Positions 1,423-55,764 of a stretch of 64,000 nt of DNA are shown here, piece by piece. Within the stretch, counting starts at the first letter, position 1, and every line of letters starts with the position of its first letter. Under the pieces are notes generated by a model, which did not search any database, was not told the DNA's origin, and saw only the letters and a program-made list of their open reading frames with translations. Source of the DNA: Candidatus Danuiimicrobium aquiferis. Its GTDB lineage: Bacteria > Omnitrophota > Omnitrophia > Omnitrophales > Danuiimicrobiaceae. The DNA lies in the NCBI GenBank assembly GCA_001804285.1, contig MHFR01000053.1:15857-79856 (forward strand). The letters run 5' to 3'. The position numbers and the translations under genes are program-made.

Positions 1423-1476
1423 GAAAAAGGGAACAGGTCCAGACTCAAGTGACGCAGGACCTGTCCCCTTTTTTTT
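1423..1476. terminator. Hairpin-A family palindrome (gaaaaagggaacaggtcc ... ggacctgtcccctttttttt), terminator-like, immediately 3' of giant gene 1
   Basis: Inverted arms plus a T8 run. It sits 19 nt downstream of the TAA of the 13,117-aa ORF. Its loop is the approximate reverse complement of the loop in the copy at 58-110. Confidence 0.5.
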
Positions 1477-26000: not shown

Positions 26001-29000
26001 GATCTCCCTGATTCATTAACTGATCCATCCACGCCGGGTGAAGTTCCATTAATAGAAGCCGGCTGAGCACGTCCATCGCTGCCTGGTTCAGGCGTTTCAT
26101 CCGTTCCGCTTTCGTATCGTCTCCCACATGTTTGGAAAGCCGCCTGACAATGTCTTCGTATTTTTCAGAATACCGTTTGATTTTTTCTCTTAAGACGCTC
26201 ACGCTCGTGATCTGCTCAATCCCCCGAATGGTCCGAATGGACAAAAAGTTGAAATTTTCTTTTGTAAAATCTTCGCGCAATGTTGCGAATTGGCCGACAA
26301 GCCGGACACGGTTTCTTTCGATCTGTTGAAGCTTGGTTTGATCGGGACGTTTCTGAGATGCCTCCTCCTGATACTCTTTCCGGTTGTAATAATATCCGCG
26401 TGCGACGACACTCAACCGGTGAATCAGCGTCCCTTCTCTTTCACGTCCTGCTTGCGGGCGGGCCGGCTCCTCCATGAAATCTCCTTCTTGTCCCAAAATC
26501 CGTTCCTCTCGCAAAGGCTTGCTGCGAACCATCATCGGCGTTCGCTCGGCGGCGGCTTGCCGGTCAACACGATTGAAATAAATGAAAGAACTTGTGATGT
26601 CGGAAAGAAACGTGGCGTCGGAGGAAACTGTTTTGGCGAGTGCAATCCTTGACTTGCCGGCCGCTTGCTGTTCATAAAGAACCGCTATTTTTTTAATTTG
26701 CTCGTTGATCGTTCTGTTTCTTCGAATCCCGTTTTGTCGAAGAACGTCCCGAAGGTAATCGGTCACGGCAAGGCGAATGAGGAGCGAGGCAATCAATCTG
26801 GTTTTTTGGGCGTCTTTTAGTTTTAAAGTTTCTAGATATTCGTAAAATTTATTCAGAATGACGAAGCGTCCTTCATCATCGATCCACGCCAGTTGACTCA
26901 AATCCGTATCCGCATCAAAATAATTCTGGTAAGCGCCGGCCGGAATATTTACTACAATCACGCCTTTCGCATCGATTTTCTTTTTCAAATGATCCAGGAT
27001 TTTTTGCTTGAATGGCCCGCGGACCGTTTCGCTTAACACCGCGCGCGCTTCCGGATTTAATTTCGACGACAACCGCTGCGGCAAGTTTGAAACCCCTCGC
27101 ATGCGTCTCGCGGCTTTCAGCGCTCCGGCTAAAGTCTCTTGAGTTAATTCTTCAAAATTGTTTGCGGCTTCAATTAATTGCGTTCTTTTCTCGCGCAATG
27201 CCTGCTGTTGGTTACGAACTTCGGCCCTGGGTTGAGTTTCGAGTTGATCTCTTTTTCCTAACTCGAAACTCGGAACTCGGGCCTCGGAACTGTTTTTCAG
27301 GCGCGCTTCGCTTCGCGGGACGGCAATCGCCGAATTCACCTGCATCTTCTTCGTCACGTTCGAAAATGCCATGTAATTGCCGATCTTCCCCGGAGGCGTA
27401 TGATTCGGAACCGCAATCCGATGTTCCTTGCCATCTGCGTTAAACGTTACCCTGTATCCTTTTCCGTCCAAAAGCCACGAACTACCCTGTTTGATTTCAA
27501 AGGAAAATGAAACGAGACCGCCGGCGTCGCTTTGAACCGTCAAAACCACTTTTTCATATTGATCAAAATCCGGAAGATATGGCGACAGCCATCCCCCGGC
27601 CCAATTGCTTTCCGCATTCATCGGAATTAATTCGATTCCGGCACCCTCCGAAAGCTGAGCGGCATTCAAATTCCCGTCACCGTGCATCACGGTATAATTG
27701 TTTAATAATTGAGTCCCCGTGCCCGCGGGAACTTCCGGCGCTTCGGGTGCAACCGGGGGCTCTTCCGGCATTTCACCCGGAGGCACCTCAGGTAAGAACA
27801 GCAAATCCGGCAAACCGGGGACTAACTTCGCGCACGCGCCAACAAATCCGGCTAAACCGAAATAAGCAGCGGTCTTTATTAAAAAAGTCCGGCGGGTAGT
27901 ATGTTTAATGTCGCGCATCTTCGGAAGAGACCTCAATGTCTCATCCGAAGAAGTGCTTGCCGCAACCGGCGGCAAGCGCGCTTCGGATCTGCTGGGGCTA
28001 ACAATTTCTTCAGCCGTCAGATTCCTAAGCTCATCATGGTCATACGAATGAAGTGGTTGATACATATTGCCTGGCGCAACTTGAACGCTGCCAGTCCGCT
28101 CAATCCAGCGGCTCGCGTGAATCAAACTATTCCACAAAGCCATTTCAACGCCGTTGAAAATATAGGCTCCCCTCTCTTTTGCTTGAATGAGAAGCGACGT
28201 TGCAAGTGGCATCCGAACCATATCAATCACATACATTCCCTCTGATATCCCGTTCAAGTCTGAAAACGGAAGCTCTTTTCCAGATGCGTTGATCAAAACA
28301 TCAGCATCCGCAAGCAAACGATAAAACTGCTCCTCATTTCCTGTAGCTGCGGTCATGCGGATTCCGGGATAACGTTCCCTCAAAGTTTGTGCGAATGCCT
28401 CTGCCTGCTCCAAATTCTCTTTGGTTTCAACAAGTCCCAAACTACTGACACCTTCCGCCGCTAACGCTTCCCCCGTTTCCCGCCCTGCGCCTCCAGCGCC
28501 ACCCAACAGGAGAATTTTTTTTCCTTTAAATCCGCCCACTGCATCTCCATACGCATTGATAAAAGCAATACCATCGATTGCATCACCCAGCAACCGCCCA
28601 TTTGATTGTTTAGTAACATGATTGACCGCTCTCACCATTCGAGCTCGCTCAGTTTGCTCGTCAAGATATTTCCCAATCGTTCGCTTCCAGGGCTGTGTCG
28701 CAACCGCGCCTATCACACGAGGATGGCTTCTCACTATATCAATTAATTCCTTGAGTTCTGTTTCACTTTTAACTGCATATGAAATCCTAAGCATATCAAG
28801 CGGAGTTTGGCCCGTGACTTGCGGATAAATTTGCCGGAAGATGTACTCATATTTTTTGTTTGCATTTGTTTTCATCACGTTCGCTTCGTCGCCGATAAAT
28901 AATGCAACTTTTGTATCTTTCGTATACGCCAGTCCGTGTTCTTTCGCGGAAGCTTCCAACCGTTTCTCAAATTCAGCTATTGATATTGTGTCCCTCGCTT

Positions 29001-32000
29001 CGGCCCGGTTTTTCCTCGATTTTCCCTCCAATTGCTCAAGAATGGCTGCAAACAAATCAGGCTCTGAGAATAACAAAAGTTTTTCTTCTCTGAAAATTTC
29101 ATCTTCACCTGTGCGTTTTACCTGCAGACTTAGCTGTCCCCCAAGATGTCCCCCTGAAGGAATAATTTTATAATCGAAACCATCTCTCGCCCATGTATAG
29201 ACATCGAGTGTCGCAACAGGCTTTCGAGAAATATCTCCCGGTTTTAACAGCTGCAATTTCCGAAGTATATCTTTGAAAAATGAAGCCTGGGCCCGTTCAT
29301 TTGCTTCTTGTTCAGTCGTTGTGTCGAGCAGTTCCGCCACCAACTTCTGGCCTGTGAGACTCTTGGGATCATCATCTCGTTCTATGCGATATGTAACTTC
29401 AAAGTTATGCCCATCAACCTCATGATCTTCTAATGCATTTAATTTTTGTTCTAAATCCTCGGTCCATTTACGAGGTTGCTCACGAAGCAAGAATATAAAC
29501 TGTTTTAACGCTGTTGAAAAAAAACCAAACCAAAGATTCCACGTTGACCCAATGTCATGCCCTTGAGTCAATGCCCGGTGGATCCGTTCTAATTCTTCTC
29601 GTGACGCATCTATTTGTGTTAAAACAAAATCACCTGTCTCTTGGGTGCTCAAATCACTGGGTTCAGCAAACGCAATGCTTATTTTCCCTTCTAAGATATC
29701 ACCCTTTAGGAAACGAACGACTACCCTTCCAAACCCTTTTCTTGCAGCTGCTAAAATAAATACGGAATGGAATTGTTCTCGAATTTCTTCCGAAGATTGA
29801 TCTTTTCCTACCCGCGCTTCGGCCCGGCCAGCCAGAAAATCAAATCCGTACGGCCTGTATGCCTTTGGATACGGATAATCCTTTTCGAATAAGTAACGGG
29901 GAAACCGCCTAATCCGCCCCTCATCTTCAAGCGCAAGCATATGATCGCAAAAACGCCGGACGGCCGCGTCAATAATTGCCAGATTTTCGGCGCTGAATTC
30001 CGTCCCCGCAGGGAATAATCCGGCGCCCAGATATCCTTTTACACCGTGCGCTTCATCCCATACACGGAGAACTCCGCCGATCTTGTTTTGTTTTTCATTT
30101 ACGTCCTTAATTTGAATAATCGAATCAATAAACACCACAACTTTGTCAGCCCGTTTTCTTTCTTCCGTTTTCTCAGCTTTCCTCGACGCCTGCAATTGGT
30201 CCAGATACCGGCCGAGCCATCTAAAATCTTCGGGAACGATAGGAGAATAGTCCTGCGCACGCTTGGCTGAGAAAATCGCCCTTAGCGTTTCCAAAACATA
30301 CCAGTGCTGACGACGGAGCAGGCCCGGATCAAGAGTCATGTCTTTCGCGATTTCCGCAAGCTTTTCCCGCAGCGAACCAGGCGCCAAGCCGTAGTGCCTC
30401 GCCAATATGGATCTTTTATGTTCATCTAACCGCGCCAAAGCGACTTCGAGCCATTGAAAGAATCTTTCGCGGGTTTCAATATCTTCCCCTTTGGCTTGCG
30501 CATCGCCACGGTCCGGGATGGCCATATTCCTTCTGATTTTGTCGGTGAATTCCTGAAATGGTAACAGGGATTTTGTGCTTGTTCCCAGCGCCTTGCGCTT
30601 GTCATCAAATATTTTTTCGAACTTTTTACGAAAGACTTCCAGATCTGTTTCTAAACTTCCTTTGCCGAGAATTTTTTCGGCCTCGTTAAGGCTCCGGAAT
30701 GCATCATCTATGGCATTTTGCGGGATGGCAACCTCCTCACCGTCCAGACCGCCCCATCTTTCTGCGAGCATTTCAAAAATCGTTGCCCGCACAACCCGGT
30801 GAAGAAACATCAACAAAGGCGTTTTGGCTTTTTGAGTTTTTTTAGCTTTTGGGGAGGCATAATTTTTAAGCGCCAGTATCAACGAGATCCAAACCTGATG
30901 TGCGAAATTCTCCGGCTCAAGTCCGACAGGGATTCCGATCACCTTTGCGAGCAGCCGTGCTTCATCAAATTTTCGCTCGATGGTTCGTTTAAACCGGCGG
31001 CGATTTGGATTGGCGTAGAAAGCAGCCAATTCCCTGATGGCCTCATTGCGGACGGCCGGATCGGAGGAACGTAATTGTTTCACATATCTTTCCAACCTCG
31101 CTCGTCCCCGCCCTCTTGCGCCTTTTTTCGTTCTGACCTCGCTCCGGTTTTTCCAGGGCGCTTTCAGGAATCCGTCCAGTTTCGTTTGCCGGACGTAGTC
31201 ACGCCATGCGGCGTACCGGGCAGGAAGAGGTTCCGCCTCGCTCGGGGCCAGGTCCTCTGCCGTTAAATTAAAATCAACAATCGCTTCAAATAATTCTTTG
31301 GCTGCTGCATTTATTTCCGCATTATTTTTCGCGTCCGACCGTAAAAACATATACATCGTTCCGACGACCATTTGCGCAATCTCCTGATTCCGGACCGCTG
31401 CTTTCATCGCGTGATGAAGCGTAACCATCACCTGGTTCCTGAAAATTTGCCGCTGTTCGGGTTTCATCACGGGCGACAGGAACAAAGTCATGTGCGTTTG
31501 AAGCAGCCGCTCAAAATCTTCCAGCGCCTGGCCGTGAGACATTTGGGAAGCTGTCGATTGAGACATTTCAATAAACGCTTGCGTCATTTGCCTTAAAGCA
31601 TTTGCTATGGCTTTGCGCGACAACCGGCTGTCTGCAAGTGCGGACAACGCCATTTGAAAACAGGGAATTTCTGTCATGAGTTCGCCGGCATCTTTTTTGG
31701 TGATCCCGTAAAGTTCAACATCATCAGAAACGGCCCTGACTGTTGCGCTCCGTTTGCCTTTAAAAAGGATGATTTCACCGTACAGATTAGGCAGGTTCGG
31801 AACCTGAAGTGTTTCACCGTCTTCGAACTCTACTTGCACGCGTCCGTTGGTAACAAAGAAAATTAAATTTTGACCGTCCGAATACTGATCCAGCCCGGTA
31901 CCGCCCACAATAAATTCTGTGCCGTTTGGAATTCTCTTTAATTTCTGCGTCCGGCCGGCAATTGTAGCGAGATCGTCATCACTCAAAAGATATAGCGGCG

Positions 32001-35000
32001 AATCCTCGTTCTCTGCCAATTTTTTCAGGATATCCAGTCCAATTTGTGTACGCGCTTCCGCCCTTGGATGAGTTTCGAGTTGAGCTGTTTGTACTAACTC
32101 GGAACTCGGAACTTGAAACTCGGGATTATTTTCCTCGCGCACTTCGCTCCGCCCGCCCGTCACGGCAAACGCCGGCGTCCAATCGTCATGCGCGGTGCGT
32201 TCGAGGTATTGCAAGTCAGGTTCGGGCGAAACCAGATCAGGCGTTTTTCCCTGCTCTTCAAAAGGATTGACATAAGCGGCGTGCAAACGCAGAAAAACAG
32301 TCCAGATTTTGGTCGTAAAATCTTTATCATTAAATTTCATCAATTTTTCGACCACCAAACTCGCTCGCTTCCGACGTTCCCGATAACTTTCATCCGAATT
32401 CCCTTTCACCACAAGAATATTCCATGCCCGGTTAAATTCCTCATGGCCCCCCCCTTCGTCTTCCGCGAGAAGCGCGCCCAACTCACTCAATAACCGGAGC
32501 ACATTGACTCCCTGCAGATAGGCGCCTTTTTGTTCTTCATCTTTTGGCATGTCGGGATACCAAAAAATATTTTCACCTGACTTCCGTTCCGAAAAATTGA
32601 AACGCCGGTACAAATGGTCTTCGAGAAAATCATCGCTGAAACTGAATAAATCAAAAAATTGAAGACCTTTCACTTTTTTCTCTTTTTGTTCCGGATCCAT
32701 CATGCCGGGGTAAAGCATCGCAAGAATCGCCGTCGCCTCCCCCAAATTTTCCCGGGCAAGTTGCAGAGTGATATCTGAATAACGCTGGTTGGCAGTCTTC
32801 TTTCCTTTTGCATTGTCCACTTGATGCTGGAACTCATGCAAAAGAATTGAGGCGAGGTATCGCCGGACAACCTCATTGAGCATAACAGGCCCGGAAACAA
32901 TTTTATGGTCCTGAAACTCCTCCTGAAAATCCCGTTTGAGCGCTTCCTCGAGCAAAGTCATTAATTGGTCTCGTTCATCCTTCTGAAATTCGTCTTTCCA
33001 CCTCGGCGCGTTGGGCTCGACTTTTCTGCGTTCATTCGTTTTAAGCGTGTCCCATAAATCGGTGATTTGGGCGAGCATGTCTTCTTTGCTCATTTTTCCG
33101 TCGAGAGCCGCAGCGATGATATTCAACATCGAAAGAATGCTCTGACAATATTCGTAAACGAACTCCACATTGACATAAGTCAAATCGGACCCATACTCAT
33201 GAAACGCCATGTGTTTCGCCTCCCTCACCGCGACGGCCGGATAAACGAACATGACGTCATATTTCCCGTCGCCCGGATGACGTTTTTCGCCGCTTTTTTG
33301 TTCCCACGACTCGTATGTTTTGTAGCGGAAAAGGTCAAAACTCCAATGTTGATCTTCCGTTTGCCTTGGATAATAGGTGAGCCCGATAAAATGAAGCGCA
33401 TGAATGCGATCAATAGTCTTGAGGTCCTCCCGGCGGGCTGATGGGTTGTTTGCGGCATCCGCCACGTTCCTGACAAAATCCTTGAGGCCGTTAATCACCT
33501 TGATTTTCCGGTCACTCCGCCAGGCGGGAAAATTGCCATAAAGCGAATGGAAGATTTCCGAAGATATACGGACAAGCGTTTCGGAATTTTTCTTTGAAAT
33601 TTGGCCGGCTCTGGCCCTGGCCGCCCAGGCCGCCAACACTGATTGCGCGATAAAAATCCCGTTACTTCCGGCATCTTTCATTTTCTGGATGGCTATCTTT
33701 TCACGCTCGCCCTTTGCCGCGGGTCGGCCTTCGAGATACGAATCGGCCATGAGAAGCGCACCGGCCACCAAGATCACCACTTTCTCAATAAAATCGGAGA
33801 CGTTATCTCCGGCCAACCGGCGCTCTGAAGCAATGGCTTCGGCGCGAGTTTGAATTTCAGATCTGACAGCTTCGAGATCAATCGCATGATTCTTAACTTC
33901 CTTTTCAATTCCTTGTTCGAGAATTTTTAACACCACTGCTGCTGCAACCCGGGATGTCCGGTCGTCCCTGAAACCTGAATATCCGCTCATTGAAACAATT
34001 TTCTCTACACATCCGGAAACTCCGAGCCCCGCAAAAACAGCCGCAATTTTAAAAAATCTCCGGCGAGTGGGAAAAGCATTGCGCGCTTCGGCCCTCGCTT
34101 GATTCCCTTGCGCCTCGCGAGGACTCTCGTTCGTTTTGATTAATAACTGGTTGGAACTACGTTCAAGGTTATGAACTTCGGCACGTTCAGCTAACGCTTG
34201 GTCCGCCAAAGTACTCTTGCGCGCTTTGATTGATAACTGCTGCGGCTTTTCCAAAACAGGAACAGGTTCTGCGTCCATTGAACCAGAACCTGTCCCCGTT
34301 TTTGGTGTAAGGTTACGCGCTTCGGAACGGAACTTTGTTGCTGAAATTTCAAAGACAGTGGAAACCGGTTCATCTTTAAACCGCTGAAATCTATTTTTCT
34401 CGATAGAAAGGTCCCCAAAACTCGAGAAAACCTCGGACAGTTCAGCCCGATCAAAAAACCGCTGCTGTTTGCCTCTTGAATCCACGATAAATCCGCCTTC
34501 GGTCGCCCGCAAAATACCGCCCATCTCGTGGGTTGTATGAACTTTTCCGGTTTGTTCGTTCGCTTCTCTGTATTTCCAATCGTCGGTTGAACGAACAACA
34601 ACAAACACCTTGCCGCCCGGACGCAATATTCTTCTGATTTCTTGTATCCTTTGAGCAAGCGTTGCCTGATCCAAATAATGAAGCGAAAGATGGGCATACA
34701 CAGCGTCGAAAGATTCACTGTCAAAAATAAGCGGTTCATGAAGGTCCTGCAGTTGAGCTCTTAGGTGATCAGAGACTTTGAATTCCCGCGCGCGGCCGGC
34801 AATATGCTCAACTGCTTCTGAAATGAAATCGGTCGCCGTGACATCATAACCGTGCATTGCAAGAAACAATTCATCATGCCCCAACCATGCGCCCAAACTT
34901 AAAATTTTAGATCCTTTCGGTAATAATTGATTTCTCACGATCCTACGCGCGCTTCCATTGACAGTATGCCGCCGGGCTCGACCGATTCCTTCCGCCTCTT

Positions 35001-40848: not shown

Positions 40849-40888
40849 GGAACGTATTGAAAAACCGCCTTTTTAAGGGATTTTAGTA

Positions 40889-40917
40889 AGTATACCCGGC
40901 CTTTCCCTAAAATGCAA
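40889..40917 (-). promoter_or_regulatory. sigma70-like promoter for giant gene 1: TTGCAT-N17-TATACT
   Basis: On the minus strand: ttgcat tttagggaaaggccggg tatact. The -10 lies about 40 nt upstream of the GTG start. The same architecture is found upstream of gene 2. Confidence 0.45.
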
Positions 40918-40977
40918 CTTTTATGAACAATTTATCGACAGCGTAAGTTGTTTGAATTAAATAAGTTATGAATTAAT

Positions 40978-41140
40978 AAACGAAAGGAGCGGGAGAAGCC
41001 TCCGCTTTAGCTGCGTTCGCTGGTTTCATGGCGAGCGGCCAAAGAAGAAACCAGCGTACTCGCTGCCGCTCGAGCTCAGCTTTGTGCTGAAAGCTTCGCC
41101 CGATCGAAGCCGCTTCGGCTTCCCGCCGCTCCTTTTTTAA
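40978..41140 (-). terminator. roughly 160-nt multi-stem palindromic structured element, likely a terminator/3' structure of gene 2 or a 5' leader structure of gene 1
   Basis: The outer stem gaaaggagcgggagaagcc / ggcttcccgccgctccttttt encloses inner hairpins (cgctggtttc/gaaaccagcg, agctttgtgctgaaagct, gaagccgcttcggcttc). On the minus-strand transcript a U-rich run follows. Confidence 0.4.
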
Positions 41141-41175
41141 TGCTTCAAACTACTAAATTTATCCGCATCTTTTGG

Positions 41176-41280
41176 CATCCTGCAAGAAGTGTCTCATCCG
41201 CGAGTTCGGAAAAAGCGACGAAGTCTCCCTACATAGCTTTTTACGTTGTCCGAGAGGGGAGACACTTCTTACGGGATGCC
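41176..41280 (-). terminator. large hairpin immediately 3' of the gene 2 stop (stems ggcatcc.gtaagaagtgtctc / gagacacttcttgcaggatgcc)
   Basis: An inverted repeat of about 22 bp separated by about 60 nt, starting 24 nt after the TAA at 41304. It lies directly upstream of the 40978-41140 structure. Confidence 0.35.
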
Positions 41281-41303
41281 TTAAACTTCAAAACGGTATG
41301 CGC

Positions 41304-41850
41304 TTACGCGGCTTTGGCGAGAGCATCCTTCGCGGCTTCTTCGAGAACCAAGCGGAGAGTCATGGCAAAGAATTGATTGAATGCATTGGCATTCACCCCG
41401 CGGAAAATATTTTGTTCAACTTGTTGAATCCCGTCGATATCCTTTTTACTCAATAAACCCATTCCCGCGAGTAACAAACCAACCGGCGTTACACGATCAA
41501 GACCTTGATATGCGATTTTCCCTCCGCTCACATACGCATCTGCAGCCAATTTAGCCGCGTGTGCATTCGCCGTCTGAACCTGGTCTGTAATCACCACATT
41601 GGCATCTCGAGACGCATTCATCGGAAATAGTGAAATCTGATAAGTCTTGATATCTCCTTTTGTCCGGGCGCGGTTAAATTCCCGTTCAATCGGTACCCGG
41701 TAATCACGCTGAATACCGGGCGAAATAAATTCAAAACGAATATTAGAATTTAGAATGGCAATATTAGCAACTGTCTTTGCTAATTCACTAAAATCTTCCC
41801 GAAACTTGTCTGTCGTCTTATCATCGGATGTTATATAACCGGCGGGAATA
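41304..41850 (-). other. conserved C-terminal domain (gene 2 copy)
   Basis: NSNIRFEFISPGIQ...ANVVITDQVQTANAHAAKLAAD...VGLLLAGMGLLSKKDIDGIQ...LVLEEAAKDALAKAA. Confidence 0.5.
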
Positions 41851-44800
41851 AAAAATTGAATAATCGTCGGCTCAGTGATTTCCTGAATGGCCTTGACAAC
41901 ACCTTTCGCTACATTCACCGCCGCTTCCGTGAGCTCCGCCTTCATTTCAAGCTCAACGGTTTGCGCCTTTTCTAACAATCCGGCACTCTGCTGCAAGACA
42001 TATTGCTTCGTAAACTCAACAATGCGATCCAACTGTGTTTTGCCGGCGTTGTCCACCGACGATGTAAGAATTAATTTCACAAATTCGACCGGCAATCCCA
42101 TTTTCGAAAATTCCGCTTCGATCGTTTTTAGAACATTGTCGTTCGATACAACCTTTAAACCCTTCAACGTCTCAACCAATCCGCTGACGGACCCTTTCCC
42201 TTTCTCCTCAGCTTTTGCCAATTCCGATAAAATATCTTGTCTCATTCCATCAGTAAATTGTCCCGCAGACCTTCCATCCTTTATTGCAGCCTTCGAAGCT
42301 CCAAAAACCTCGTCCGCGCCCAAACTTCCATAAACGATCCCTTGCGCAATCGGCGACAAGCGCGATTCGGCCCTCGCTTGATGGGACACGGGAGATGAAA
42401 CACGAGACATGTGATCCTCTTGTCTCTTGCCCCTTGTCTCTTGCCCCATCCCAACGCGCGATTCGGAGCGAGTGGCATTAAACTCTTCAAAGACACTAAT
42501 CAAAACATTCTCTAATTCTTCCGCCGTGCTTACCGGTTTTCCCTCGCCTATCCGATTTAAAATTCTCTCGGTAAAAATCCGCTCAAACACTCCGGGATTC
42601 ATAAAATATTTCCCGAGAATTGATTGCAATTCCGTTATCAGGAAGTGTTTAGTTGCTCTTTTTTGGCCTGTATCTAATTGCCGGCGAATACTGGCATCTG
42701 CCGATCTCATATAGGGCCGAACTTGTTCGCGAATCACATCAAGATTTGTTGTGTTGGCCCCCAATTTCAAACGCAAATCTTTTACCGTCACTCCCGCCCG
42801 CGTCTCCGCGCGCACTGGCGGCGTTTCCTCTTCAGGAGCTGGTTTATTCATTTCTAATTCCCACCCAATCAAATCCCCCTGGCTATAAACAGGCTCTAGA
42901 CGATCGACTTTAAAACCGCTTTGCCTAACCATCTCCGCTAAGCTTGCTTTTTCTTCATCACCATAAATTCCCGCTTTTTCAATCAGTGCGCGAGCCAGCA
43001 CTGCTTGAGGCAAAGATAACGCATCTTTTTTCATAACGGTACTCATTGCTTGCATGTGTGCTCTCACATCATTTAATATAACGGAGTTCCTATGATGGAC
43101 GAGAAACATGGCTTTGCCACCCGGAACCAGCACACGATAAATTTCTCTAAGCGCCTGCTCTTTTAAATCCGCATACTCCCAGGCATTTAAAGATGTGACA
43201 ACATCCAAAGTTTCATCCTGAAATCCTTGCAATGTTTCAAAATTCATCTGGCGAAAATCAACAAAAGAAGGAACCTTGTCCGGACTCAACTCCGCCGCAT
43301 CAATCGCAGAAATTTGTGCATTCGAACCCAGGACTTCCCTGACGACTTTTGGCACAAAAAAGTTTCCTGTCCCGATATCCAATATGCGGATTTGTGAAGG
43401 ATTTGATTTATAATTTCCGAAAAACTCCGCGAATAATTTCGCTACATCCGGTCGATATTTTTCAGGCAAAGAACTCGCTTTCCCGTCTTTCCAAAAATCC
43501 GCCCAAAATGCCGGTTCTGTTACGTCCTGTCCCGTAAAACCTATAAATTCGTCCCCCGCCCGCGTTTCCGCCCTTGCGGCCGTTGGCTCCAAGGACAAGT
43601 TGCGCGCTTCGGAACGGAGTTTGACGCTGACGGTCATCTCTTCGGACAGATCGGAAATTGCGAAGACATTCATATATTCATCAGGCGAAAGCGTAATTCG
43701 ATCAGGATCGTCAATAGGAACAAACTCATTAACAATTTGAAATACCTTCGTCACCGGCGCGCCGTTCGATGTCACTGTTATATCTTTTTTCCGTCCATCA
43801 ACCTCTCCCATTTTGCCGATAAGCTGAATCGTATCTCTTTTCAGCTCAAGTTTAAAACTCACCGTGCCGGCGCTTTGAACCGTAATGTCCACTTCTTTGT
43901 ACATCCCGATGTGGGTCAGCCACCCCTCCGTAGCTTTTCGGTAACCACCAATATAATTTTCAGCAGAAGTCGGAATAAGCGTAAATCCGTAATCGTTTCG
44001 CGTCGCTGTCATATTATTGCCAAAAGACATCCCGGGAAAAAGCGCAGGATCAAACACATCAACGACCGTGGTCGGCGCCGGAGGCACGACAGGCGGCGTC
44101 ACGGGCGGTGTTACCGGCGGCTCGACAATCTGTGGAATTGGCCAACTGTCTCCGTTAAAGGGTAAAACAACGGGCGGGTTTGTAAATGGATACAGACTGG
44201 GCTCCTGCGATTCCATAGTTAGCAACCCGGCGCTTGTATCTTCGGTAAATATAAACCGCATTCCATCCGAATATGCGTTCGTAAAGGACCGTTCTGCCTT
44301 TAACGCAATGATCCGCATTCCCCGCATGGACAGTTCCACTCTCACCTTTTCATCCGTTCCGACGTACCGGCGCACACCATATGTAAAATCAAAAGTCCGC
44401 TGGATATCTGCCGTTGTGAGGCCGGTCAAATCCTCACGATAGGTCATCCCTCTTGAGTCAATATCATTCAACACAATTTTCTGCGCAATTTCGCCGAGAA
44501 CCGGCTCTGCCACACTGAGTTCGGCAAGAGTCGAATAGGTTGCAGTAGACCGAACCGGGTTGAGAGGTGTCAGTGTCCCGCGCTGCGGGTTATTGGCTAA
44601 AATATCCTGAACAAATAATCTCGTGTCGAGCTGCATCGGAAGAGAGAGATCTTCCGCTATAGCCGTGAGACCATTTTCATAGGGCTTGATCAACTGAACT
44701 CTTGTCGTCCAGCCATCCGGCGTTGTAAAAATCCGTAATGCATTGCCAATCTCAATCACATCCCCATCAACCTGAACAGACCACTTCTCGGGAAGTAACA

Positions 44801-47800
44801 AATCAGATCCATAAGGAATGCCGTACGCTTGAATTGCGCCATCGCCCGGTAAAATATGGGATCTCATCGCGAACAACAGAAAATCAAGAAAAGTAGAATC
44901 CCCGAGCTTTGCCTGCAAAACAGCCCGTTCTATTGACCCACGACTGCCATACCCATAGGAGGTTTCCATAATCATCGTTTCGATTTCAATATCGGAATCA
45001 TATGAAAATCCGTAAACATCCGCAGCGTTGAGGAGATTTGTTTTAGCGGCCTGAATCAGGGTTTTCCTTTTCTCATCTCCCTTGCTATCGATATGCTGCC
45101 AAAGATGCTGAGCTTCATGAAGAACCACCCAATTCAACAAAGAGTGGCTCGCGATTAATTTTGCCATGCGCGCCCTGCCGTCTTTCTCGGCAAGTTCTCC
45201 CAAATCTCTCTGTCGCGCTCCCGTGGTAATCCTGCGCGCAGTCGCACCCCCTGCTTTCGTTTCGGCAGGCTCATTATTTGTATACAAATTCAGTTCGCCT
45301 AAATTCGATATGCCTCGGGGAACTGATGCGGCTGCGTTCGACCATGACTCTGTCGGTAAAACCAAAACCTGCGATATTAAATGCAACAGATGGGTCGGAA
45401 TTAATTTTAATCCATCGATTAACCATACCTTCTCCTGATCCCCTAAACGATAATTGCGTTTGTCACCTTGATAATTATGATATAATTTTATTTCGTAACC
45501 ATTTACGTCAATCGTCTCTGCTCCCTGACTCAATATAAAAGCCCGCGCTTCGTTGTAAATATCTATCGCTGACGGTTCCGCAGGTGCTTCTGGTGTTCCT
45601 GGTGTTTCTGGTGCTTCAGGCGTTCCAGGTGCGACAGGCGTAACCGGCGCCGGCGCAATGGCTGCGCCCGCTCCGCATCCAGCTGCCAATGGCAATATTG
45701 CTGCCACCGCAGATAGCATCGCAAATCCAATTCCACGCAAACCCTTTGGCCCGGGTTGCTTCATCCGCGTCTGCCCGCCGACGCCTGTTTGGCGGGCTTC
45801 CGAACGGCCCACTGAGCGGCCTAACAAGCCGCCGACACCGAAACGTTCACTCAGAGGGGTCACCGCAATCGGCGTGGTACTCAAGGGGTGCGGAGAACGA
45901 GCTCGCATCGCTGCCTCCTCTGCTTTTCTTCTCTTCGTACGATCTGCAATCCCTGTGGTCTTCATCTCTGCGTTGGCGAGAACGGGACTAAAAATATCGG
46001 GTGTGAAATTCTTGCTGCTTGTCAGGACGAGGCGTTGAATATCGGGTTCGGGGGAAACATGTTCGCCGGCTAATTTGTTCCATTCGGAAAAAACGCGTTT
46101 CACAAGGTTTTCAACTTCCTCATCAGATGAAGCCAGCAATCTTTCGAGAATCCAGTTGGCCCGGCGCATCCGTTCCCAATAACTCGTTTCCGTATCGCCT
46201 TCGACCTGTGTCAGGTCGAGTTCTTTCCGGAAATCTTCCTTCTTAGCGCCCGGTTTTTCTTTTTCATACAAAATCATTCCCATTTGATTGAATAGCTGGA
46301 TCAAATTAATCGCGTAAATGAGATCTCCCCACTCCGCAATTGCCTGATTGGATGCGGGAGGTTTGGGAAGCCAGTTAGAGGTCCCGTCAGGCGCTTTGAC
46401 CTCCGCGTAAGGAATCCGCCGGCCAAATCTATTCTCAACGACGGTGCGTGCCGTCAACGCAAACACCGAAAAACGGGCACTACTTGTGGCCTCCTTTTGG
46501 CGGGCATCTAAATACAAACTCGGAAACAGGCTTGCCAAGAACGAGAGGGCTTCGTCCATATAATTATTGCGCAAGAATTCCGTGGTCTTCGACAGAGCTT
46601 GCCCCGCCACTTTGTTTTTCTGCCCGCCCATAAAATGCTCAAATTCATGAATCAGAGTGTTCCCGGACACTCTTCTGCCAATCTCTTCGCGGGCGAGTGT
46701 CGGGATTTCGGCGTGAGAACGAATTGCATCCTCCATCCGCGAAAAATAATCTTTAAAATCCCTTCTGTATCCCTGTACAACAAGTGACATTATTTCGTGA
46801 AGTTTTTCGCGTGGATATTGGGACTTCCAACTCGAGGCGTTTGGATCCACTTTCCGGCGATCGGCCGTATAGTCCTCGTCAAGCACGTCAATCACCCTAT
46901 CCAGCATCTCGGTTCTGTCCTCTTCGCTCTTTCCGCTTTGTTCAAAATCGGCCATGATTTTCAGCAAACGTTCTGTTCGCGTCACGAGCTCGGCAATGGA
47001 CGCATTATCGACCAGCACCATATCCGAACTCAGGTCGTAATAAGCCAGGAACATTTTCGGGCCGATCCGCATGACGGGAGTCACGTAAGCGACTCGGAAA
47101 TCCTGTTTTTTAAATTTCGCGCCGGGCGTTTTTGCCGGATCCTGCACCCATGATTCGTAACGGGTGTAGCGCAAAAGCTGATAATTCCATCTGCCGCTTT
47201 TGGTCTTGGAAGTCATCCTCGTCAAATTAATCGCGTGGAAAGCCTCGGAATAATCCGCTGCCATGATTGACGCCGGCTCATCCGGATTTTTCGCTACATC
47301 CTGGAAAAACTGATCGATAAATCCTCGAAGATCCGTTTTGACCGTTTGCCCTTCATCCTCGCCCCAGGCGGAAAATTCTAACGCATCAATTAATTCGCTA
47401 TGCAGCCTTGCGACACCAGAAAGTTCATTTATTTTCTCCGTTTGTTCGACCTCGAGAGGAATCGCCGCCATAATAGATTGCGCCAAAAATAAATCATGGG
47501 TTCTCGGATCTTGCATTTGCTTACGCGCAAACTGGGAGGCGCTCACACCGGCCGCGGGCACGTCTTTGAGCATCGAATCGGCCACCAGCAGCGCACCGGA
47601 AATAAGAATAGACGTTTTCTCTATAAGTTCCCACGTTTGATCCGGATTTAATTTTTCCTGTTTCGCAAATGTTTTGACGGAATCGGATATTTCCGCCTTG
47701 AGATCTTTTAAGTTAACTTGAAATTCTTTCACTCCCGTTTTCAGCCCTTGTCCGAGCAAATCAAAAACCAGGCGGTAAGACAAATGAGAAGTTTTCTCGT

Positions 47801-50800
47801 CGCGACGCATCGGGACACCGGCCACAATGAAATGGGCCACTTCACCGCTGTTCGCAATTTGGGAGCACCCGGAGATAACCAGCCCAAACAATCCGCCCGC
47901 ATATCCTGCATATTTCATGAATGTTCTTCGATTTACCCCGCGTGTGGCAGTTGTCGGAAACTCAAACGTAACAGGTCTCGCAACTGCTCCGGCCGCCATC
48001 ACATCCGAAGTTCCCACCATCGGCGGTGCCTTCGGAAGCGCCATCCCCATGCTCTCCGCCACCAGGCGCGCTTCCGACCGAGGGCCCTTTGGGCTTGTCG
48101 GCGAAGCAGGAGTGACTGTGGTGATCGATGGAGAAGCGGGATTTTGCGCCGGAGTTGCAATACCTGGTGTCGGCCTGATGGCAAGAGGCAACGGATTCGC
48201 CGGAGATTGAATCGCCAATCGCGCCAAATGATTCAGATAAGCCAAATCCCCCATTAGCTTAAAAGCAGCTTCTTCGGGAAACGCTTGAGGACTACTCATA
48301 AGTAATTGCAACACCAACCCTGGATCTTGAAAAGATTCCAGAACCACCGCGGACACAGACCTTTTTGTAGCTGTTATCGAAATTCCGTCAGCCTTACCGC
48401 TTAGTAAATCAGCTGATAATGCCGCAATCAACGTACTGCTCCAATCAAACACCTTTTCAGCCATGCCCGGTTTAAATTCGAATCCTTGCGGCACGCGGGC
48501 CTGCCTCGCCAACGCTGTTGGGCGAACTTCGGAGCGGGCTGTAATAATAATATTTGTTCCTTCTTGTCCCACTTCGTAGGCTCTGCCTTCTTCCCCAAAT
48601 CGTGGATCTGTTGCCGACATTTTCATTTCAATAGCCTGATTGACGTTGCCAGGAGGTACAAGTAGATTCAGATCTGTTACACTTTTCTCATCCCCGCCGT
48701 CCCTAAAAAACACACCGACTTGATTGGGCATCGTACTTGAGGGCCTTGCCATAACCGTTTCTCGGATTCGCTCGTATATATCACGGGCCATTCTGCCCAC
48801 TCTCTTCGAAGGAACCGTTTGCCGCGTTTCCGCCCTGAATTGAGTTTCGGGTTCCGGGTTTAAAGTTTCGAGTTGAGCTGTTTGTCCTGACTCGGGACTC
48901 GGAACTACGGGCTTTTTACCGTCCTTTAGAATAAACTCGGAACTTTTGCCGGGGCGCGCCAAATCCGCCTTGATGGCCCGGAGCTTTTCCAAGATGTCGG
49001 GAAAAACGTCGGACGCTGTATTATATTTTGGTTGTTTTGGATTTGCCGGCGCCAGCATTTCCTTCTGCATTTCTTCGGTTATCGCGAGAAGCCGCTTGGC
49101 TTCTTCGCTTTCCGGATCATACTTGACGAGTAAATCGGGATTCTTTCCAAGCGGATTATTCACTAATTTCGCCCACGCAAAAAGGTCTAACGACGGTCCC
49201 AAATCCCCGTCTCCCTGCTCAATGGTGGGAGAAGTCATTTTTCCGTTCACCTTGACAACTTTTTCGTTGAAATCACTTTGAACTGCCGAAATCTCTCTGA
49301 GATCCATCAAAAACGGGAGAATCTGATCTGCCGCCTTTTTCAAAATGGGATTATCGCCCACCCTGTTAGGATCTATGGTGGCGCTCCCCAAGTCGACTAC
49401 CCCAACGCCGTCCGGCGTCACGGCGATGTTATCGCCCCGCAAATCATTGACCGAAATCCCGATCGAATATAAAGCCTCCACAAGCTCCATCAACTGGATC
49501 GCAAAATCGAGCTGGGAAATTTTCTGGCCTCCGTCGCGAAGCCATGTCCGGCTTAATTTAATCACAATTTTCTTCGGAGGCTTTCCTTCTCTTGCGATCT
49601 CCCCTTCCTCTGTTCCCATGGGTCTGGGAAATAATTTCGTGAATCTCTCGAATTTTCCGCCGCGCAGACCTTTTTGAATTTGATCGAGCATCCGGAGCTC
49701 CCAAACAAGTAACCCCGGCAACTGTTCTTCCACCCTGAGCCTGGCTTGCTCAGGCACATCCCCAGGCGCTACCTTGCCCCGTTTTGAAAGAAGCTCTTCC
49801 ATTTCTTTGAGTTCAGGAACATATTTCGCGACGACTACTTGTCCTGATTTCTTATCTACTTCCAAAATAACGTGATTCGTATGGCGTGTAATCGTCGAAT
49901 CCTCTGCCAATGGCAGTTCCATCCTTCGCGCTGAAGCATAATAGTAGGGCTGGCTTCCGGGAACCGGAAACCCAAACACGGTTTTCTCAACCTCTGTGAC
50001 CTCGCGGCTAATTGTGAATTCATTCCGGCCCCTGAACTGTTCGATTTTGGCCTCCACCTCTTGCTGAACTGCTGAAGCAAATACAACTTGTCCGCCCAAT
50101 CCCAGACGGTTAGACATATGGTCTATATTCGTTTTCTCTTCCTCAGGCGTTTTTGCGGTCTCGGCGGCATCCAAAAATAAATAATCCACCTTGCTCTGGC
50201 CCTCTACGTTAGTTGCCCAACGTTGCCCATACTTCCTGAATTCGGGATCCTCTTTATTGAATTTATCGATTAACGCGCGACGCAACCTCGGGATGCTCCA
50301 CCGCTGGCGAGCTAAGCGGGCAAAATGAATCATCGTCCGGATCGTCGATGGCAACCAGGGACGGACCTCTTTGCCAGCTGTCCCAAGAGGTCCGTCCCCG
50401 ACTTCCTGCGAAGGAGTGCTTGGCGCAACAACCGGCGGCACCTGAATTTTTGCCCCAGCAGCGGTACCGTTTGATCCCGGCCGCACCTGCGAGGACAGGT
50501 CGCGCGTTTTGATTAATGACTGTTCAGGTTCTATCAATTGGTTGCGCGTTTCCGCGCGAAGGAAAACGACTTTAGCTCCTGGCAATAACATAATATCTAA
50601 GTTACTATTACGAAAATCATACCCAACAGAAAAATCATACCGCCCGGGGAGCACGGTAAAAGTTTCACCGTTTGCATCCTTTGTTGGACCGCTTACGAGA
50701 ATTGAAAATGGCTTGTTGCGGAGCCCGAGCCGATCCACTATTCCATCGAGAAAGTAGTCGAGCCAGATATTGCTATCTATCGTAAATTCCTCTTCCCGGG

Positions 50801-55607: not shown

Positions 55608-55644
55608 TAATCCCCTTAACTAAGCTTTTAGCATTCTTATGAAA

Positions 55645-55673
55645 AGTATATACCGATTAGGGGTAAAATGCAA
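55645..55673 (-). promoter_or_regulatory. sigma70-like promoter for giant gene 2: TTGCAT-N17-TATACT
   Basis: On the minus strand: cttgcat tttacccctaatcggta tatact. The -10 lies about 40 nt upstream of the start. The architecture is the same as the gene 1 promoter. Confidence 0.45.
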
Positions 55674-55764
55674 GCCCGTGTCCTTCATATTATAATTCGT
55701 AAGTTGTTATATTTAAATGAGATAGGAGAAAGGCTAAGTAATTCAAGTGTAAAATTTAAGCACT

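Follow-up and report, generated by a model that had tools for sequence, protein, structure and literature searches.

In flavivirus and pestivirus polyproteins, which are encoded by a single open reading frame (ORF), internal signal sequences start the translocation of the downstream part of the chain. Each such signal is released by two cuts, one made by a cytosolic protease just ahead of it, at a few basic residues followed by a small one, and the other made by signal peptidase at its far end. Cleavage between modules at simple sites also takes place in the large precursors of MARTX toxins and of RgpA, Kgp and HagA of P. gingivalis, namely Leu for the MARTX cysteine protease domain and Arg or Lys for the gingipains. 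Dual Sec/Tat proteins, such as the actinobacterial Rieske proteins, resemble the segments analyzed here in having a functional twin arginine and hydrophobic segment away from the N-terminus; their Tat-dependent helix is reportedly the last one, stays uncleaved and precedes a single C-terminal globular cofactor domain. The E. coli proteins LoiP/YggG and YcaL are M48 lipoprotein peptidases in which a lipoprotein signal is followed by an HExxH domain, and they act in the cell envelope. Regarding the giant proteins of Omnitrophota, post-translational cleavage has been proposed, the cleavage points being unknown (West-Roberts et al., 2023, bioRxiv 10.1101/2023.11.21.568195), and this lack has blocked their domain-by-domain analysis (10.1101/2023.11.21.568195). 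In a 2026 preprint (10.64898/2026.06.07.730766), internal signal-peptide calls in such proteins were downgraded as chunking artefacts, and linkers, processing and Tat are unmentioned.

The window analyzed here, a stretch of 64,000 nucleotides of Candidatus Danuiimicrobium aquiferis (contig MHFR01000053.1), contains three giant ORFs, g1, g2 and g3 (Table 1), the first of which was recovered with 99.95% identity from an independent assembly. As in the published cases, the ORFs are very long and combine enzymatic and membrane regions with others of unknown nature, and they belong to the same phylum: 72 loci match the N-terminal domain of about 900 aa, typically at 25-48% identity (best segment), and all of them come from Omnitrophota MAGs or metagenomes. 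This domain is kept across Omnitrophota giants, and the first copy of the boundary motif described below always comes next. Identity between g1 and g2 is 39% across the N-domain and around 30% across the HExxH cassette, and the C-terminal cassettes of g3 and g2 are homologous. Cys is scarce, with eight residues in the 13,117 aa of g1, five in g2 and none in g3 (13 in 20,627 aa). No C39, S8 or SecA-like domains were found here. Neither of the two published studies of Omnitrophota giant proteins describes the boundary motif, the division into cassettes or the rule by which signals come after the motif.

Table 1. Position of the features of the three giant ORFs within the window.
Feature	Residues (aa)	Nucleotides	Strand	Remarks
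g1 giant ORF	13,117 aa	1495..40848	-	26 copies of boundary motif R-[SA]-E-[AVILMT]-R
g1 N-terminal domain	1-914	38107..40848	-	Sec-like signal, EreA/ChaN/Tiki/TraB-like fold
g1 SAM-methyltransferase cassette		34330-35043	-	Met directly after preceding motif (RSEAR)
g1 motif RSEAR	2174-2178	34315..34329	-	End of SAM-methyltransferase cassette
g1 73-aa spacer between two motif copies	2179-2251	34096..34314	-	In-frame terminator-like palindrome, 34253-34305
g1 motif RAEAR	2252-2256	34081..34095	-	Twin arginines 5 aa downstream
g1 RAEAR-NAFPTRRRFFKIAAVFAGLGVSGC	2252-2280	34009-34095	-	
g1 Tat-type lipoprotein signal-like segment	2257-2280	34009..34080	-	NAFPT-RRRFFK-IAAVFAGLGVSG-C; h-region 12 aa, lipobox VSGC
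g1 orphan, mostly helical cassette with HEFQH	2281-2899	32152..34008	-	
g1 HEFQH	2671-2675	32824..32838	-	Glu-Ala kept past second His in both paralogues
g1 motif RSEVR	2900-2904	32137..32151	-	End of HExxH cassette; then 24-aa spacer and RAEAR (2929-2933)
g1 next cassette after HExxH one	2934-3234	31147..32049	-	cNMP-binding domain, 31.5 bits (cut-off 27.5)
g1 motif RSEAR	4287-4291	27976..27990	-	End of shikimate-dehydrogenase-like cassette
g1 second Tat-type lipoprotein signal-like segment	4292-4339	27832..27975	-	MRDIKHTT-RRTFLIK-TAAYFGLAGFVGA-C, from Met4311
g1 TTRRTFLIKTAAYFGLAGFVGAC	4317-4339	27832-27900	-	
g1 Pro-rich tether and putative small globular domain	4340-4511	27316..27831	-	
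g1 motif RSEAR	4512-4516	27301..27315	-	End of 225-aa cassette
g2 giant ORF	4,767 aa	41304..55607	-	g1 paralogue in N-domain and HExxH cassette
g2 motif RSEAR	2510-2514	48066..48080	-	
g2 Tat-type lipoprotein signal-like segment	2515-2581	47865..48065	-	Long n-region; ...N-RRTFMK-YAGYAGGLFGLVISG-C; passes TIGR01409
g2 NRRTFMKYAGYAGGLFGLVISGC	2559-2581	47865-47933	-	
g2 paralogue of HExxH cassette	2582-3267	45807..47864	-	HEFEH at 46635-46649 (aa 2987-2991)
g2 motif RSEAR	3268-3272	45792..45806	-	Divides the two exported-type cassettes of g2
g2 Sec-type lipoprotein signal-like segment	3273-3311	45675..45791	-	MKQPGPKGLR-GIGFAMLSAVAAILPLAAG-C, from Met3281
g2 GFAMLSAVAAILPLAAGC	3294-3311	45675-45728	-	
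g2 Pro-rich tether and orphan cassette	3312-3997	43617..45674	-	HEAQH at 45105-45119 (aa 3497)
g2 motif RSEAR closing aa 3312-3997		43602-43616	-	
g3 giant ORF	2,743 aa	55765..63996	-	8 boundary-motif copies; no Cys

The reading that we put forward, and to which we give an even chance of being correct, is that g1 and g2 are polyprotein-like precursors cut at the motif, by which their internal signals would become N-terminal; cleavage, export route, lipidation and peptidase activity are parts of it that we infer. The chain would be a string of protein-sized cassettes joined by a linker motif, four of which would have the signal-like segments as their N-terminal ends. A putative Arg-directed endopeptidase would cut at or beside the motif, so that the internal segments would come to lie at new N-termini and act as signal peptides, three of Tat type and one of Sec type. 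The freed cassettes would then be exported, receive a lipid at the lipobox Cys and undergo trimming by signal peptidase II. Pro-rich tethers would carry two of the exported cassettes, and three of the four would present an HExxH domain, probably zincin-type, outside the cytoplasmic membrane, as LoiP and YcaL do, while the methyltransferase, cNMP-binding, Rossmann and SF1 helicase cassettes, devoid of signals, would remain in the cytoplasm. As is characteristic of polyproteins, functional units are set apart by a short motif that recurs at their boundaries. There are also differences with respect to the known systems: the viral polyproteins are processed at the eukaryotic ER with an encoded protease (NS3), whereas g1 and g2 lie on a bacterial chromosome and combine Tat and lipoprotein (signal peptidase II) signals and dozens of cassettes with a protease that is putative. 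The MARTX and gingipain precursors leave the cell as a single chain, cleavage taking place afterwards, either extracellularly or within the host; unlike g1 and g2, they lack Tat and lipoprotein signals in their interior and do not mix cytoplasmic and exported modules.

The six peptides quoted in the original prediction are all present on the minus strand of g1 and g2 where it had located them; the first g1 signal was assigned to the right site, although it extends slightly past the end given there, to 34092/34095. Three of the segments are near-consensus twin-arginine signals ending in a lipobox Cys (T-RRRFFK, T-RRTFLIK and N-RRTFMK, of the form [ST/N]-RR-x-F-[LFM]-K, for a Tat consensus S/T-R-R-x-F-L-K) and one is a Sec-type lipoprotein signal, with h-regions of 12-19 aa in the four cases. 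The h-regions of the RR type have 12, 13 and 15 aa, a mean Kyte-Doolittle value of 1.15-1.9 and around 50% Gly/Ala, and end in the lipobox. Uncharged residues precede the lipoboxes, of which VSGC, VGAC and ISGC match the strict pattern [LVI][ASTVI][GAS]-C, and AAGC matches the PROSITE (PS51257) pattern only. The PROSITE-type pattern was found four times, versus a mean of 0.083 (maximum 2) in 2,000 shuffles, and 4 of the 13 Cys of the giants occupy lipobox positions. Internal lipoboxes were found in this window only, with none in the approximately 158,000 aa of the other giants, a point against our reading. Between the g1 and g2 modules, which share about 30% identity, the RR pair, F, K, the h-region and SGC are all kept. 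The Tat segment of g2 scores 19.4 bits against TIGR01409 (TAT_signal), above the curated cut-off of 16.7; the two g1 segments do not match TIGR01409, and they match the Tat-signal profile PF10399 weakly (E around 0.01), under its cut-off. The lipobox statistics, the conservation between paralogues and the TIGR01409 score of the g2 segment make these segments genuine, conserved signal-peptide-like elements, as had been proposed.

The Tat segments sit 2,262-4,319 residues from the start of the encoded polypeptide and would be N-terminal only if the chain were cut at the motif. The lipoprotein rule (Cys at 15-35, Lys or Arg among the first seven residues) does not apply to the ORFs as encoded. 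It would apply to a g1 precursor beginning after RAEAR, with Cys at position 24, or at Met4311, with Cys at 29, and to a g2 precursor beginning at Met3281, with Cys at 30. Cys2581 of g2 is at position 45 from Met2537 and 67 from the motif, and a cut at the motif would give the signal at 2515-2581 an n-region of 45 aa, long even for Tat. A related genome makes use of the Tat pathway: the giant gene of locus L009 has as its neighbor a gene for a molybdopterin oxidoreductase whose TAT_signal is bona fide.

The motif R-[SA]-E-[AVL]-R is present in 44 copies in the three giants of the window, versus 0.41 in shuffles, and in 283 copies in the 158,442 aa of 53 other Omnitrophota giant ORF fragments, for an expectation of 3.2. 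In the same loci, its density per 1,000 aa is 1.9 in ORFs above 2,000 aa and 0.01 in those of 100-600 aa. The motif is therefore around 100-fold above chance and specific to giants, being almost missing from ordinary ORFs, although three family members (L067, L032 and L016) have no copy of it. The extended linker consensus is [PTS]-x-[AGSP]-R-[SA]-E-[AVL]-R-[NSTA]. Met is enriched 2.4-fold at +1, where L, F and Y are depleted, and some copies have Pro in that position, which many Arg-specific proteases do not tolerate. The motif is selected as a peptide, because its codon use varies, with all six Arg codons and Ser encoded by both TCN and AGC. A DNA or RNA repeat was also considered and is ruled out by this variation, with the caveat that GAAGCGCGC is over-represented; no Rfam match was obtained in the window. 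A search of the literature on RSEAR, RSEVR, RAEAR and RAEVR returned nothing relevant.

The median distance from one motif to the next is 328 aa (interquartile range 224-508), and the distances form two groups, short spacers and protein-sized modules. Homology blocks begin 5-10 aa past a motif in two of three examples, and those reaching the end of a cassette stop about 10 aa or less from the motif that follows. The motif delimits cassettes, which double as units of homology. The modules behind the signals had already been regarded as discrete, and they are indeed cassettes, delimited by a motif that had gone unnoticed. All four signals of the window are located 5-45 aa downstream of a motif copy, and internal Tat or Sec signals are found directly after the same motif in related Omnitrophota giants, such as RSEVR-MDRRDFLKTAGIGLGL..., RAEVR+10-RRTFLQVAGTAF...SSAAQP and RSETR-MNKKVGAALAFAAITAGLAAS. 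Among the Tat-like matches, 11 of 20 fall within 60 aa after a motif, with 2.3 expected (0 of 20,000 permutations), as do 24 of 94 first hydrophobic segments (10.9 expected; 0 of 5,000). Processing into lipoprotein subunits and membrane re-entry anchors had been offered as alternatives, and this placement, repeated in other giants, favors the former.

The HExxH motif is found at the aligned position of both paralogues (SILLHEFQHQV and NTLIHEFEHFM), in agreement with the original prediction, at a distance of around 390-410 aa past the lipobox Cys and not of some 500 aa after the signal as was then estimated. Hydrophobic residues precede it in g1 and g2, and a low-confidence model puts both copies in a helix. 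A Glu-Ala pair, whose Glu is the candidate third zinc ligand, as in gluzincins, is kept 28-29 residues after the second His, in a comparison limited to these two sequences. The zincin-like peptidase fold suggested for the module could not be substantiated: there was no Pfam match at E values up to 10, neither the full module nor a 200-aa core of it retrieved a peptidase from the PDB or Pfam in sequence and profile searches, a Foldseek search of the PDB with the low-confidence model (AlphaFold, from a two-sequence alignment, pLDDT 44.8) was uninformative, and the g1 and g2 cassettes do not reach the cut-off of M48 (Pfam PF01435). The Peptidase_M48 cut-off (20.3) is passed by the HExxH cassettes of two relatives, L013 (28.9 bits) and L068 (46.6 bits), so that M48 domains like those of LoiP/YggG and YcaL occur in related giants, while the g1 and g2 cassettes differ from those proteins in having about 620 aa, mostly helical, with no detectable similarity to M48 or any family. 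Across the family there are 30 copies of HExxH versus 4.7 in shuffles, a six-fold enrichment that, like the two relatives above the M48 cut-off, makes the context favorable to a zincin fold. Seven of about 20 HExxH cassettes begin with an export signal, and the association between both elements is marginal (Fisher p = 0.04). We consider the HExxH domains of g1 and g2 as probably zincin-type. Autoprocessing by the module, which had been contemplated, would be unlikely for an exported module. The Pro-rich linkers predicted after the Cys are present (4340-4378 in g1, 3312-3347 in g2). The g2 cassette starting at aa 3273, originally described as such a linker and a beta-sandwich domain, which remains a putative one, is larger (around 690 aa) and contains a further HExxH, HEAQH, missing from that description.

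The cassettes could also be relics of gene fusion, formerly separate genes, some of them for Tat or Sec lipoproteins, having been joined in frame so that the signals would be leftovers and the motif a mere structural linker. This is unlikely in our opinion. The size of the cassettes, similar to that of ordinary proteins, is in line with such an origin, and so are the enrichment of Met right past the motif, the Met that opens the methyltransferase cassette and the palindromes of the spacers, elements that also occupy true intergenic positions (60-111 and 1425-1476). However, RR, h-region and lipobox Cys have outlasted a drift that left the paralogues around 30% identical, and this in proteins where Cys has otherwise been eliminated, the motif-then-signal geometry is seen again in distant lineages, and a passive linker needs no five-residue motif conserved around 100-fold above chance. 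Nor was a free-standing homologue found for any signal-bearing cassette. For the g1/g2 HExxH cassette, a word-indexed search of 5.8 billion proteins and a scan of GTDB genomes gave no homologue, and a profile HMM run against 1.84 billion representatives retrieved only the same gene from another assembly; no homologues were found for the second g2 cassette (aa 3273-4002) either. The capture of once free-standing lipoprotein genes, initially proposed to explain these modules, therefore cannot be backed, as no relatives were found outside the locus.

A single, uncut membrane protein, in which the segments would be internal signal-anchors or transmembrane helices ('SP+TM', the architecture at present assumed for Omnitrophota giants) or, in a variant, Tat signals like those of dual Sec/Tat Rieske-type proteins, seems rather improbable to us, even though published topology surveys predict a signal peptide plus transmembrane segments for most giants (10.64898/2026.06.07.730766) and true hydrophobic helices of 18-26 residues come after some motif copies in g3 and several relatives. 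With 12-15 residues and around half Gly/Ala, the RR-type h-regions are too short for a stable span, and an uncleaved anchor has no use for a lipobox. In g1, exported-type cassettes are flanked by others of cytoplasmic type (SAM methyltransferase, cNMP-binding, Rossmann, SF1 helicase), among them the cNMP-binding domain at aa 2934-3234. A single uncut chain has no workable topology because g1 alternates both types without membrane helices between them that would return the chain. The same three features, short h-regions, no other spans in g1 and flanking cassettes of cytoplasmic types, count against the membrane re-entry anchors of the original prediction. The layout reported for dual Sec/Tat proteins is not that of g1 and g2 either, where the segments have a lipobox and are followed by 1,450-10,800 residues (more than 8,000 in g1), including cytoplasmic-type domains. 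In favor of the uncut chain, natural examples of internal Tat-dependent helices are reported (PMC3471235, PMC5449189).

Internal translation starts are a highly improbable explanation. The cassettes would be made separately from Met4311 in g1 and from Met3281 and Met2537 in g2, and their signals would be N-terminal from the outset. An in-frame Met is located 18-45 residues ahead of the Cys in three of the four segments, which would give signal peptides of textbook length, and Met is enriched past the motif, but no Shine-Dalgarno sequence is present at a usable distance before these codons, while g2 and the downstream gene have one. The signal at 2257-2280 of g1 has no nearby Met, Val or Leu start candidate. 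Promoter-like sites between 26000 and 36000 number 16, versus 9.9 (sd 2.9) in shuffled sequence, a marginal excess, and none is just 5' of a cassette start; the motif is also left unexplained. Finally, the possibility that hydrophobic stretches of such long proteins look like signal peptides by chance has a negligible probability and is rejected by the statistics: some RR plus hydrophobic runs are expected in 20,627 residues, and a strict Tat regular expression alone yields 2.6 matches in shuffles of the whole data set, but the lipobox count (4 versus 0.083), the features kept between paralogues, the placement after the motif (0 of 20,000 permutations) and the segment that passes a curated HMM argue against it.

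Extending the polyprotein reading to the whole family is more tentative, and we place it somewhat below an even chance. The giants of this Omnitrophota family would be 'operons without stop codons', in which a single passage of the ribosome would yield dozens of ordinary proteins as one chain with Arg-directed cuts at R-x-E-hydrophobic-R, whose pieces would be sorted separately to the cytoplasm and to the Sec, Tat and lipoprotein pathways. If so, topology pipelines would now be discarding genuine internal signal peptides, and the cleavage map described as missing in the literature would be given by the motif. The question of one chain versus many products in bacterial giant proteins becomes directly testable with the motif, which predicts exact N-termini, product sizes and compartments and also offers a rule for splitting giants into units for structure prediction and annotation. 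If this were confirmed, the strategy of viral polyproteins would have an equivalent on a bacterial chromosome, where Tat, Sec and lipoprotein signals would direct each piece, and the 'SP+TM' topologies of giant proteins would have to be read differently.

With respect to the protease that would make the cuts, neither the window nor the conserved neighbors of the giant genes yielded a candidate domain, which counts against our reading. The clusters of flanking ORFs in 72 loci comprise mreB/C/D, mrdA, rodA, LarB-like, EPSP synthase and deacetylase-like genes, and no protease. The PAD_porph gene located downstream encodes a divergent agmatine-deiminase-like protein that scores under the equivalog cut-offs; tying it to fragments ending in Arg is pure speculation.

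The four lipoprotein-signal-like segments inside g1 and g2, two of the three giant minus-strand ORFs arranged in tandem in the window, are listed with the other features in the table. All six peptides quoted in the original prediction were present in the window ORFs at the coordinates checked, and Pro-rich tethers like those it described were found after two of the lipobox Cys residues. A PROSITE-type lipobox pattern matched four times across 20,627 aa (mean of 2,000 shuffles, 0.083), and four of the Cys residues (eight in g1, five in g2, none in g3) occupy the lipobox position. Three segments carry twin arginines followed by h-regions of 12, 13 and 15 residues, about half Gly/Ala; such short, Gly/Ala-rich h-regions are typical of Tat signal peptides. 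The g2 twin-arginine segment exceeds the curated cut-off of TIGR01409 TAT_signal (19.4 versus 16.7 bits), and the two in g1 match a Tat-signal profile below threshold only. The fourth segment has a Sec-type h-region of 19 residues. Cys is extremely scarce throughout g1-g3 and 53 related ORF fragments, with 0-11 per ~4,000 aa and many ORFs having none.

Features of the window and of related Omnitrophota loci (L numbers; L001 is an ENA assembly of the same organism)
Feature	Location	Nucleotides	Strand	Residues or remarks
g1, giant ORF	window	1495-40848	minus	13,117 aa
g2, giant ORF	window	41304-55607	minus	4,767 aa
g3, giant ORF	window	55765-63996	minus	2,743 aa
PAD_porph/agmatine-deiminase-like gene	window, after g1	124-1260	minus	378 aa
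Signal, RAEAR-NAFPT-RRRFFK-IAAVFAGLGVSG-C	g1	34009-34095	minus	aa 2252-2280
Signal, MRDIKHTT-RRTFLIK-TAAYFGLAGFVGA-C	g1	27832-27918	minus	aa 4311-4339
Signal, N-RRTFMK-YAGYAGGLFGLVISG-C	g2	from 47865	minus	aa to 2581
Signal, MKQPGPKGLR-GIGFAMLSAVAAILPLAAG-C	g2	from 45675	minus	aa 3281-3311
HEFQH	g1	32824-32838	minus	aa 2671-2675
HEFEH	g2	46635-46649	minus	aa 2987-2991
Motif and signal, RSEVR-MDRRDFLKTAGIGLGLTASAVWGLDAAAEA	L009			
Motif and signal, RSEIR, SRRDFLRAVSAGMVAIATVPFEAWA-QT	L009			signal 19 aa on
Motif and signal, RAEVR, SRRTFLQVAGTAFGVSFIPTISSAA-QP	L003			signal 10 aa on
Motif and signal, RSETR-MNKKVGAALAFAAITAGLAAS	L049			
Motif and signal, RAETR-NVKTAFISFAILGIAALG	L026			
Peptidase_M48 cassette	L013	ORF 10935-22310		~aa 3585; 28.9 bits
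Peptidase_M48 cassette	L068	ORF 2872-14628		~aa 3193; 46.6 bits
In-ORF palindromes, set 1	window	2410-2462, 3560-3612, 15874-15926, 22619-22670, 34253-34305, 39861-39912		
In-ORF palindromes, set 2	window	40010-40062, 40556-40608, 56828-56880, 58845-58896, 62214-62265		
Intergenic palindromes	window	60-111, 1425-1476		flank small downstream gene as apparent terminator
REP/MITE-like repeats, first list	window	3790-3876, 15933-16019, 22674-22760, 57497-57563 (inverted)		
REP/MITE-like repeats, second list	window	2359-2437, 4435-4513, 15823-15901, 27199-27277, 48828-48906		
g1 split sites	L001	1409-1418, 20287-20317		window 39189-39198, 20321
Conserved upstream synteny	L002/L004	3741-8902		also 11-14 other loci
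x-[AS]-A-stop C-termini	g1; g2; g3	1495-1581; 41304-41390; 55765-55851		
x-[AS]-A-stop C-termini	L043, L036, L074, L028, L066, L060, L067, L037, L065, L050, L021			

Just upstream of each of the four segments lies a pentapeptide, R-[SA]-E-[AV]-R, that the original prediction had overlooked, at 5 aa (g1 2262), 27 aa (g1 4319) and 45 aa (g2 2560) from the twin arginines and ~20 aa from the h-region at g2 3294. When the fourth position may also be Thr, Ile, Leu or Met, g1-g3 contain 44 copies, versus 0.41 in shuffles. All six Arg codons are used and Ser is encoded by both TCN and AGC; this varied codon usage indicates that the motif is selected as a peptide, although GAAGCGCGC is over-represented. 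A profile of the N-terminal domain retrieved 72 related loci, whose 53 non-redundant giant ORF fragments (158,442 aa) hold 283 copies, against 3.2 in shuffles, and at these loci the density of the motif per 1,000 aa is 1.9 in ORFs >2,000 aa and 0.01 in those of 100-600 aa. In every case the conserved N-domain comes before the first copy, which lies at ~aa 740-930. The consensus extends to [PTS]-[SPT]-[AGSP]-R-[SA]-E-[AVL]-R-[NSTMA], with Met enriched 2.4-fold and bulky hydrophobic residues depleted at position +1; the second position is relaxed in some lineages (R-x-E-hydrophobic-R), and the motif is absent in a few.

The gaps between consecutive motifs are bimodal, with 34 short spacers (<=80 aa) and 231 modules (>=120 aa) whose median length of 328 aa (interquartile range 224-508) corresponds to ordinary bacterial protein sizes. 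Homology blocks keep to these boundaries in three examples: the g1/g2 paralogous block (g1 2259-2892) occupies the interval between motifs 2252-2256 and 2900-2904, the match of g1 12141-12782 to an L071 giant begins 7 aa past a motif there, and g2 972-1604 matches an L074 block sitting exactly between two motifs. The SAM-methyltransferase domain lies within a 238-aa cassette whose first residue, immediately past RSEAR, is Met.

Signals also follow the motif in other giants (see table). Internal Tat-like matches, loosely defined, lie within 60 aa past a motif in 11 of 20 cases, compared with 2.3 expected (0/20,000 permutations), as do 24 of 94 first-of-cluster hydrophobic segments (10.9 expected; 0/5,000). 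Internal lipoboxes were found in the window giants only, the relatives having AxA-type sites or anchors. The Tat pathway is evidently in use in this group, since the L009 giant gene is adjoined by a molybdopterin oxidoreductase whose N-terminus carries a genuine TAT_signal (27.3 bits).

The order of domains in g1 bears on how such signals could work. A Sec-like signal and the N-domain are followed by uncharacterised cassettes, a SAM methyltransferase of cytoplasmic type, a spacer, the Tat-lipoprotein-type HExxH cassette, another spacer, a cNMP-binding cassette of cytoplasmic type (31.5 bits), more uncharacterised cassettes, a shikimate-dehydrogenase-like Rossmann cassette, a small Tat-lipoprotein-type cassette, further uncharacterised cassettes and an SF1 helicase. 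Tat substrates are folded, released proteins, so a segment attached to 8,000-10,000 residues of cytoplasmic-type domains could not be carried; the signals would therefore be either idle or active once the chain is cut. We give roughly an even chance to the giants being polyproteins cut at or beside the motif, whose pieces are exported through the signals thus exposed, a reading in which we infer cleavage, protease, export and lipidation. After such a cut, the internal segments would become N-terminal lipoprotein signals of Tat or Sec type; export and then Lgt/LspA processing would follow, and the HExxH and small domains would end tethered at the envelope.

That the signals are instead non-functional relics of fusion, with the motif a passive linker, seems unlikely because they are conserved. 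Somewhat less probable still is a membrane protein that stays as one uncut chain and uses internal signal-anchors, with a dual Sec/Tat mechanism (as in PMC5449189 and PMC3471235) as a variant: the twin-arginine h-regions are too short for membrane-spanning helices, which also speaks against the membrane re-entry anchors first proposed, and g1 has no other credible membrane-spanning helix once its signal-like segments and N-terminal signal are set aside. Internal translation starts are improbable, with neither a Shine-Dalgarno sequence nor promoter support, and chance resemblance is negligible given the lipobox excess, the conservation between paralogues and the motif-linked position.

Cleavage of the polyprotein would release the HExxH modules, and these are paralogues (~30% identity) in which the twin arginines, the Tat-consensus Phe and Lys, the h-region, the SGC lipobox and HExxH are aligned and conserved. 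HExxH does follow the signal at aligned positions in both, as originally described, at a spacing of ~400 aa rather than ~500 aa. Beyond the paralogue no homologue appeared in any library searched, Pfam and PDB gave no match, and the structure model was unusable. In ~179,000 aa of giants, hydrophobic-preceded HExxH occurs 30 times, versus 4.7 in shuffles. Of ~20 HExxH cassettes, 7 open with an export signal immediately behind the motif (L003 twice, L020, L049, g1, g2 twice), an association that at a stricter threshold reaches only p = 0.04 (Fisher). In two relatives, HExxH cassettes score above the cut-off of Peptidase_M48; others match WLM, SprT, M4, M90 or DUF2268 weakly. A Glu-Ala pair, kept 28-29 residues past the second His in g1 and g2, could provide the third ligand of a gluzincin. 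This context (enrichment, signal-led cassettes, M48 matches and Glu-Ala) favours a peptidase, for which the zincin fold first proposed is a candidate. Autoprocessing by an exported module is unlikely. Pfam detected no peptidase in g1-g3.

Giant proteins of Omnitrophota and the idea of their cleavage have already been published, with the cleavage points described as unknown (2023 preprint, 10.1101/2023.11.21.568195). Internal signal-peptide calls were later taken as artefacts in a work that mentions neither linkers, processing nor Tat (2026 preprint, 10.64898/2026.06.07.730766). Since these preprints lack them and a literature search on the motif gave nothing relevant, the boundary motif, the cassette organisation and the motif-then-signal rule appear to be new, and they turn an open question into explicit, testable predictions.

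The locus belongs among the 'giant genes' of both preprints, as every homologue of the N-terminal domain shared by g1 and g2 comes from a Candidatus Omnitrophota MAG or an unclassified metagenome contig. One such N-domain protein, P0006 (L016 1728-5774), contains an intein (PF14890; ..GLCVTGDTLL..). The length of the g1 ORF does not stem from an assembly error in the window, because the independent public assembly ENA ERZ28563641 (scaffold_951) has it at 99.95% identity, the sole differences being one N-run and a 31-bp scaffolding duplication, which split g1 into three gene calls there; in the window it is continuous. There is one sigma-70-like promoter for g1 (40849-41303) and a similar one for g2 (55608-55764), AACAACTTACG ... 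TTGCAT-17 nt-TATACT, and the three giant genes are therefore probably transcribed separately.

No protease gene was found as a conserved neighbour of the giants. Directly upstream of the first giant gene, relatives keep EPSP synthase, mreB, mreC, mreD, mrdA (PBP2) and rodA, among others, or, in other related loci, a LarB-like gene. The product of 124-1260 matches the PAD_porph family (E = 8e-107) and scores well under the agmatine-deiminase equivalog cut-offs (288 versus 483 bits; 267 versus 382 bits). The related PPAD of P. gingivalis citrullinates the C-terminal Arg left by Arg-gingipain; a connection of this gene with Arg-ending fragments is pure speculation. In nearly every complete giant ORF of the family, an amphipathic helix leads into a terminal x-[AS]-A-stop (..GSAA, ..AKAA, ..KRAA, ..ALAA, ..QAAA and others), which is similar to a C-terminal sorting signal or to the LAA-COOH terminus that ClpX and Tsp recognise in the ssrA degron.

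Terminator-like palindromes, AAAAGGGGACAGG-N24-CCTGTCCCCTTTT, lie in frame within the giant ORFs, translated as KKGTG...PVPFF, and where checked (g1 aa 2179-2256, 6034-6089 and 8281-8344) they sit in short two-motif spacers. Two more families of REP/MITE-like DNA repeats, 'VIPAKAGIQLD.RFRGND' and 'LETLNSELGTQ', are translated in frame and also occur in inter-cassette spacers, often immediately ahead of a motif copy.
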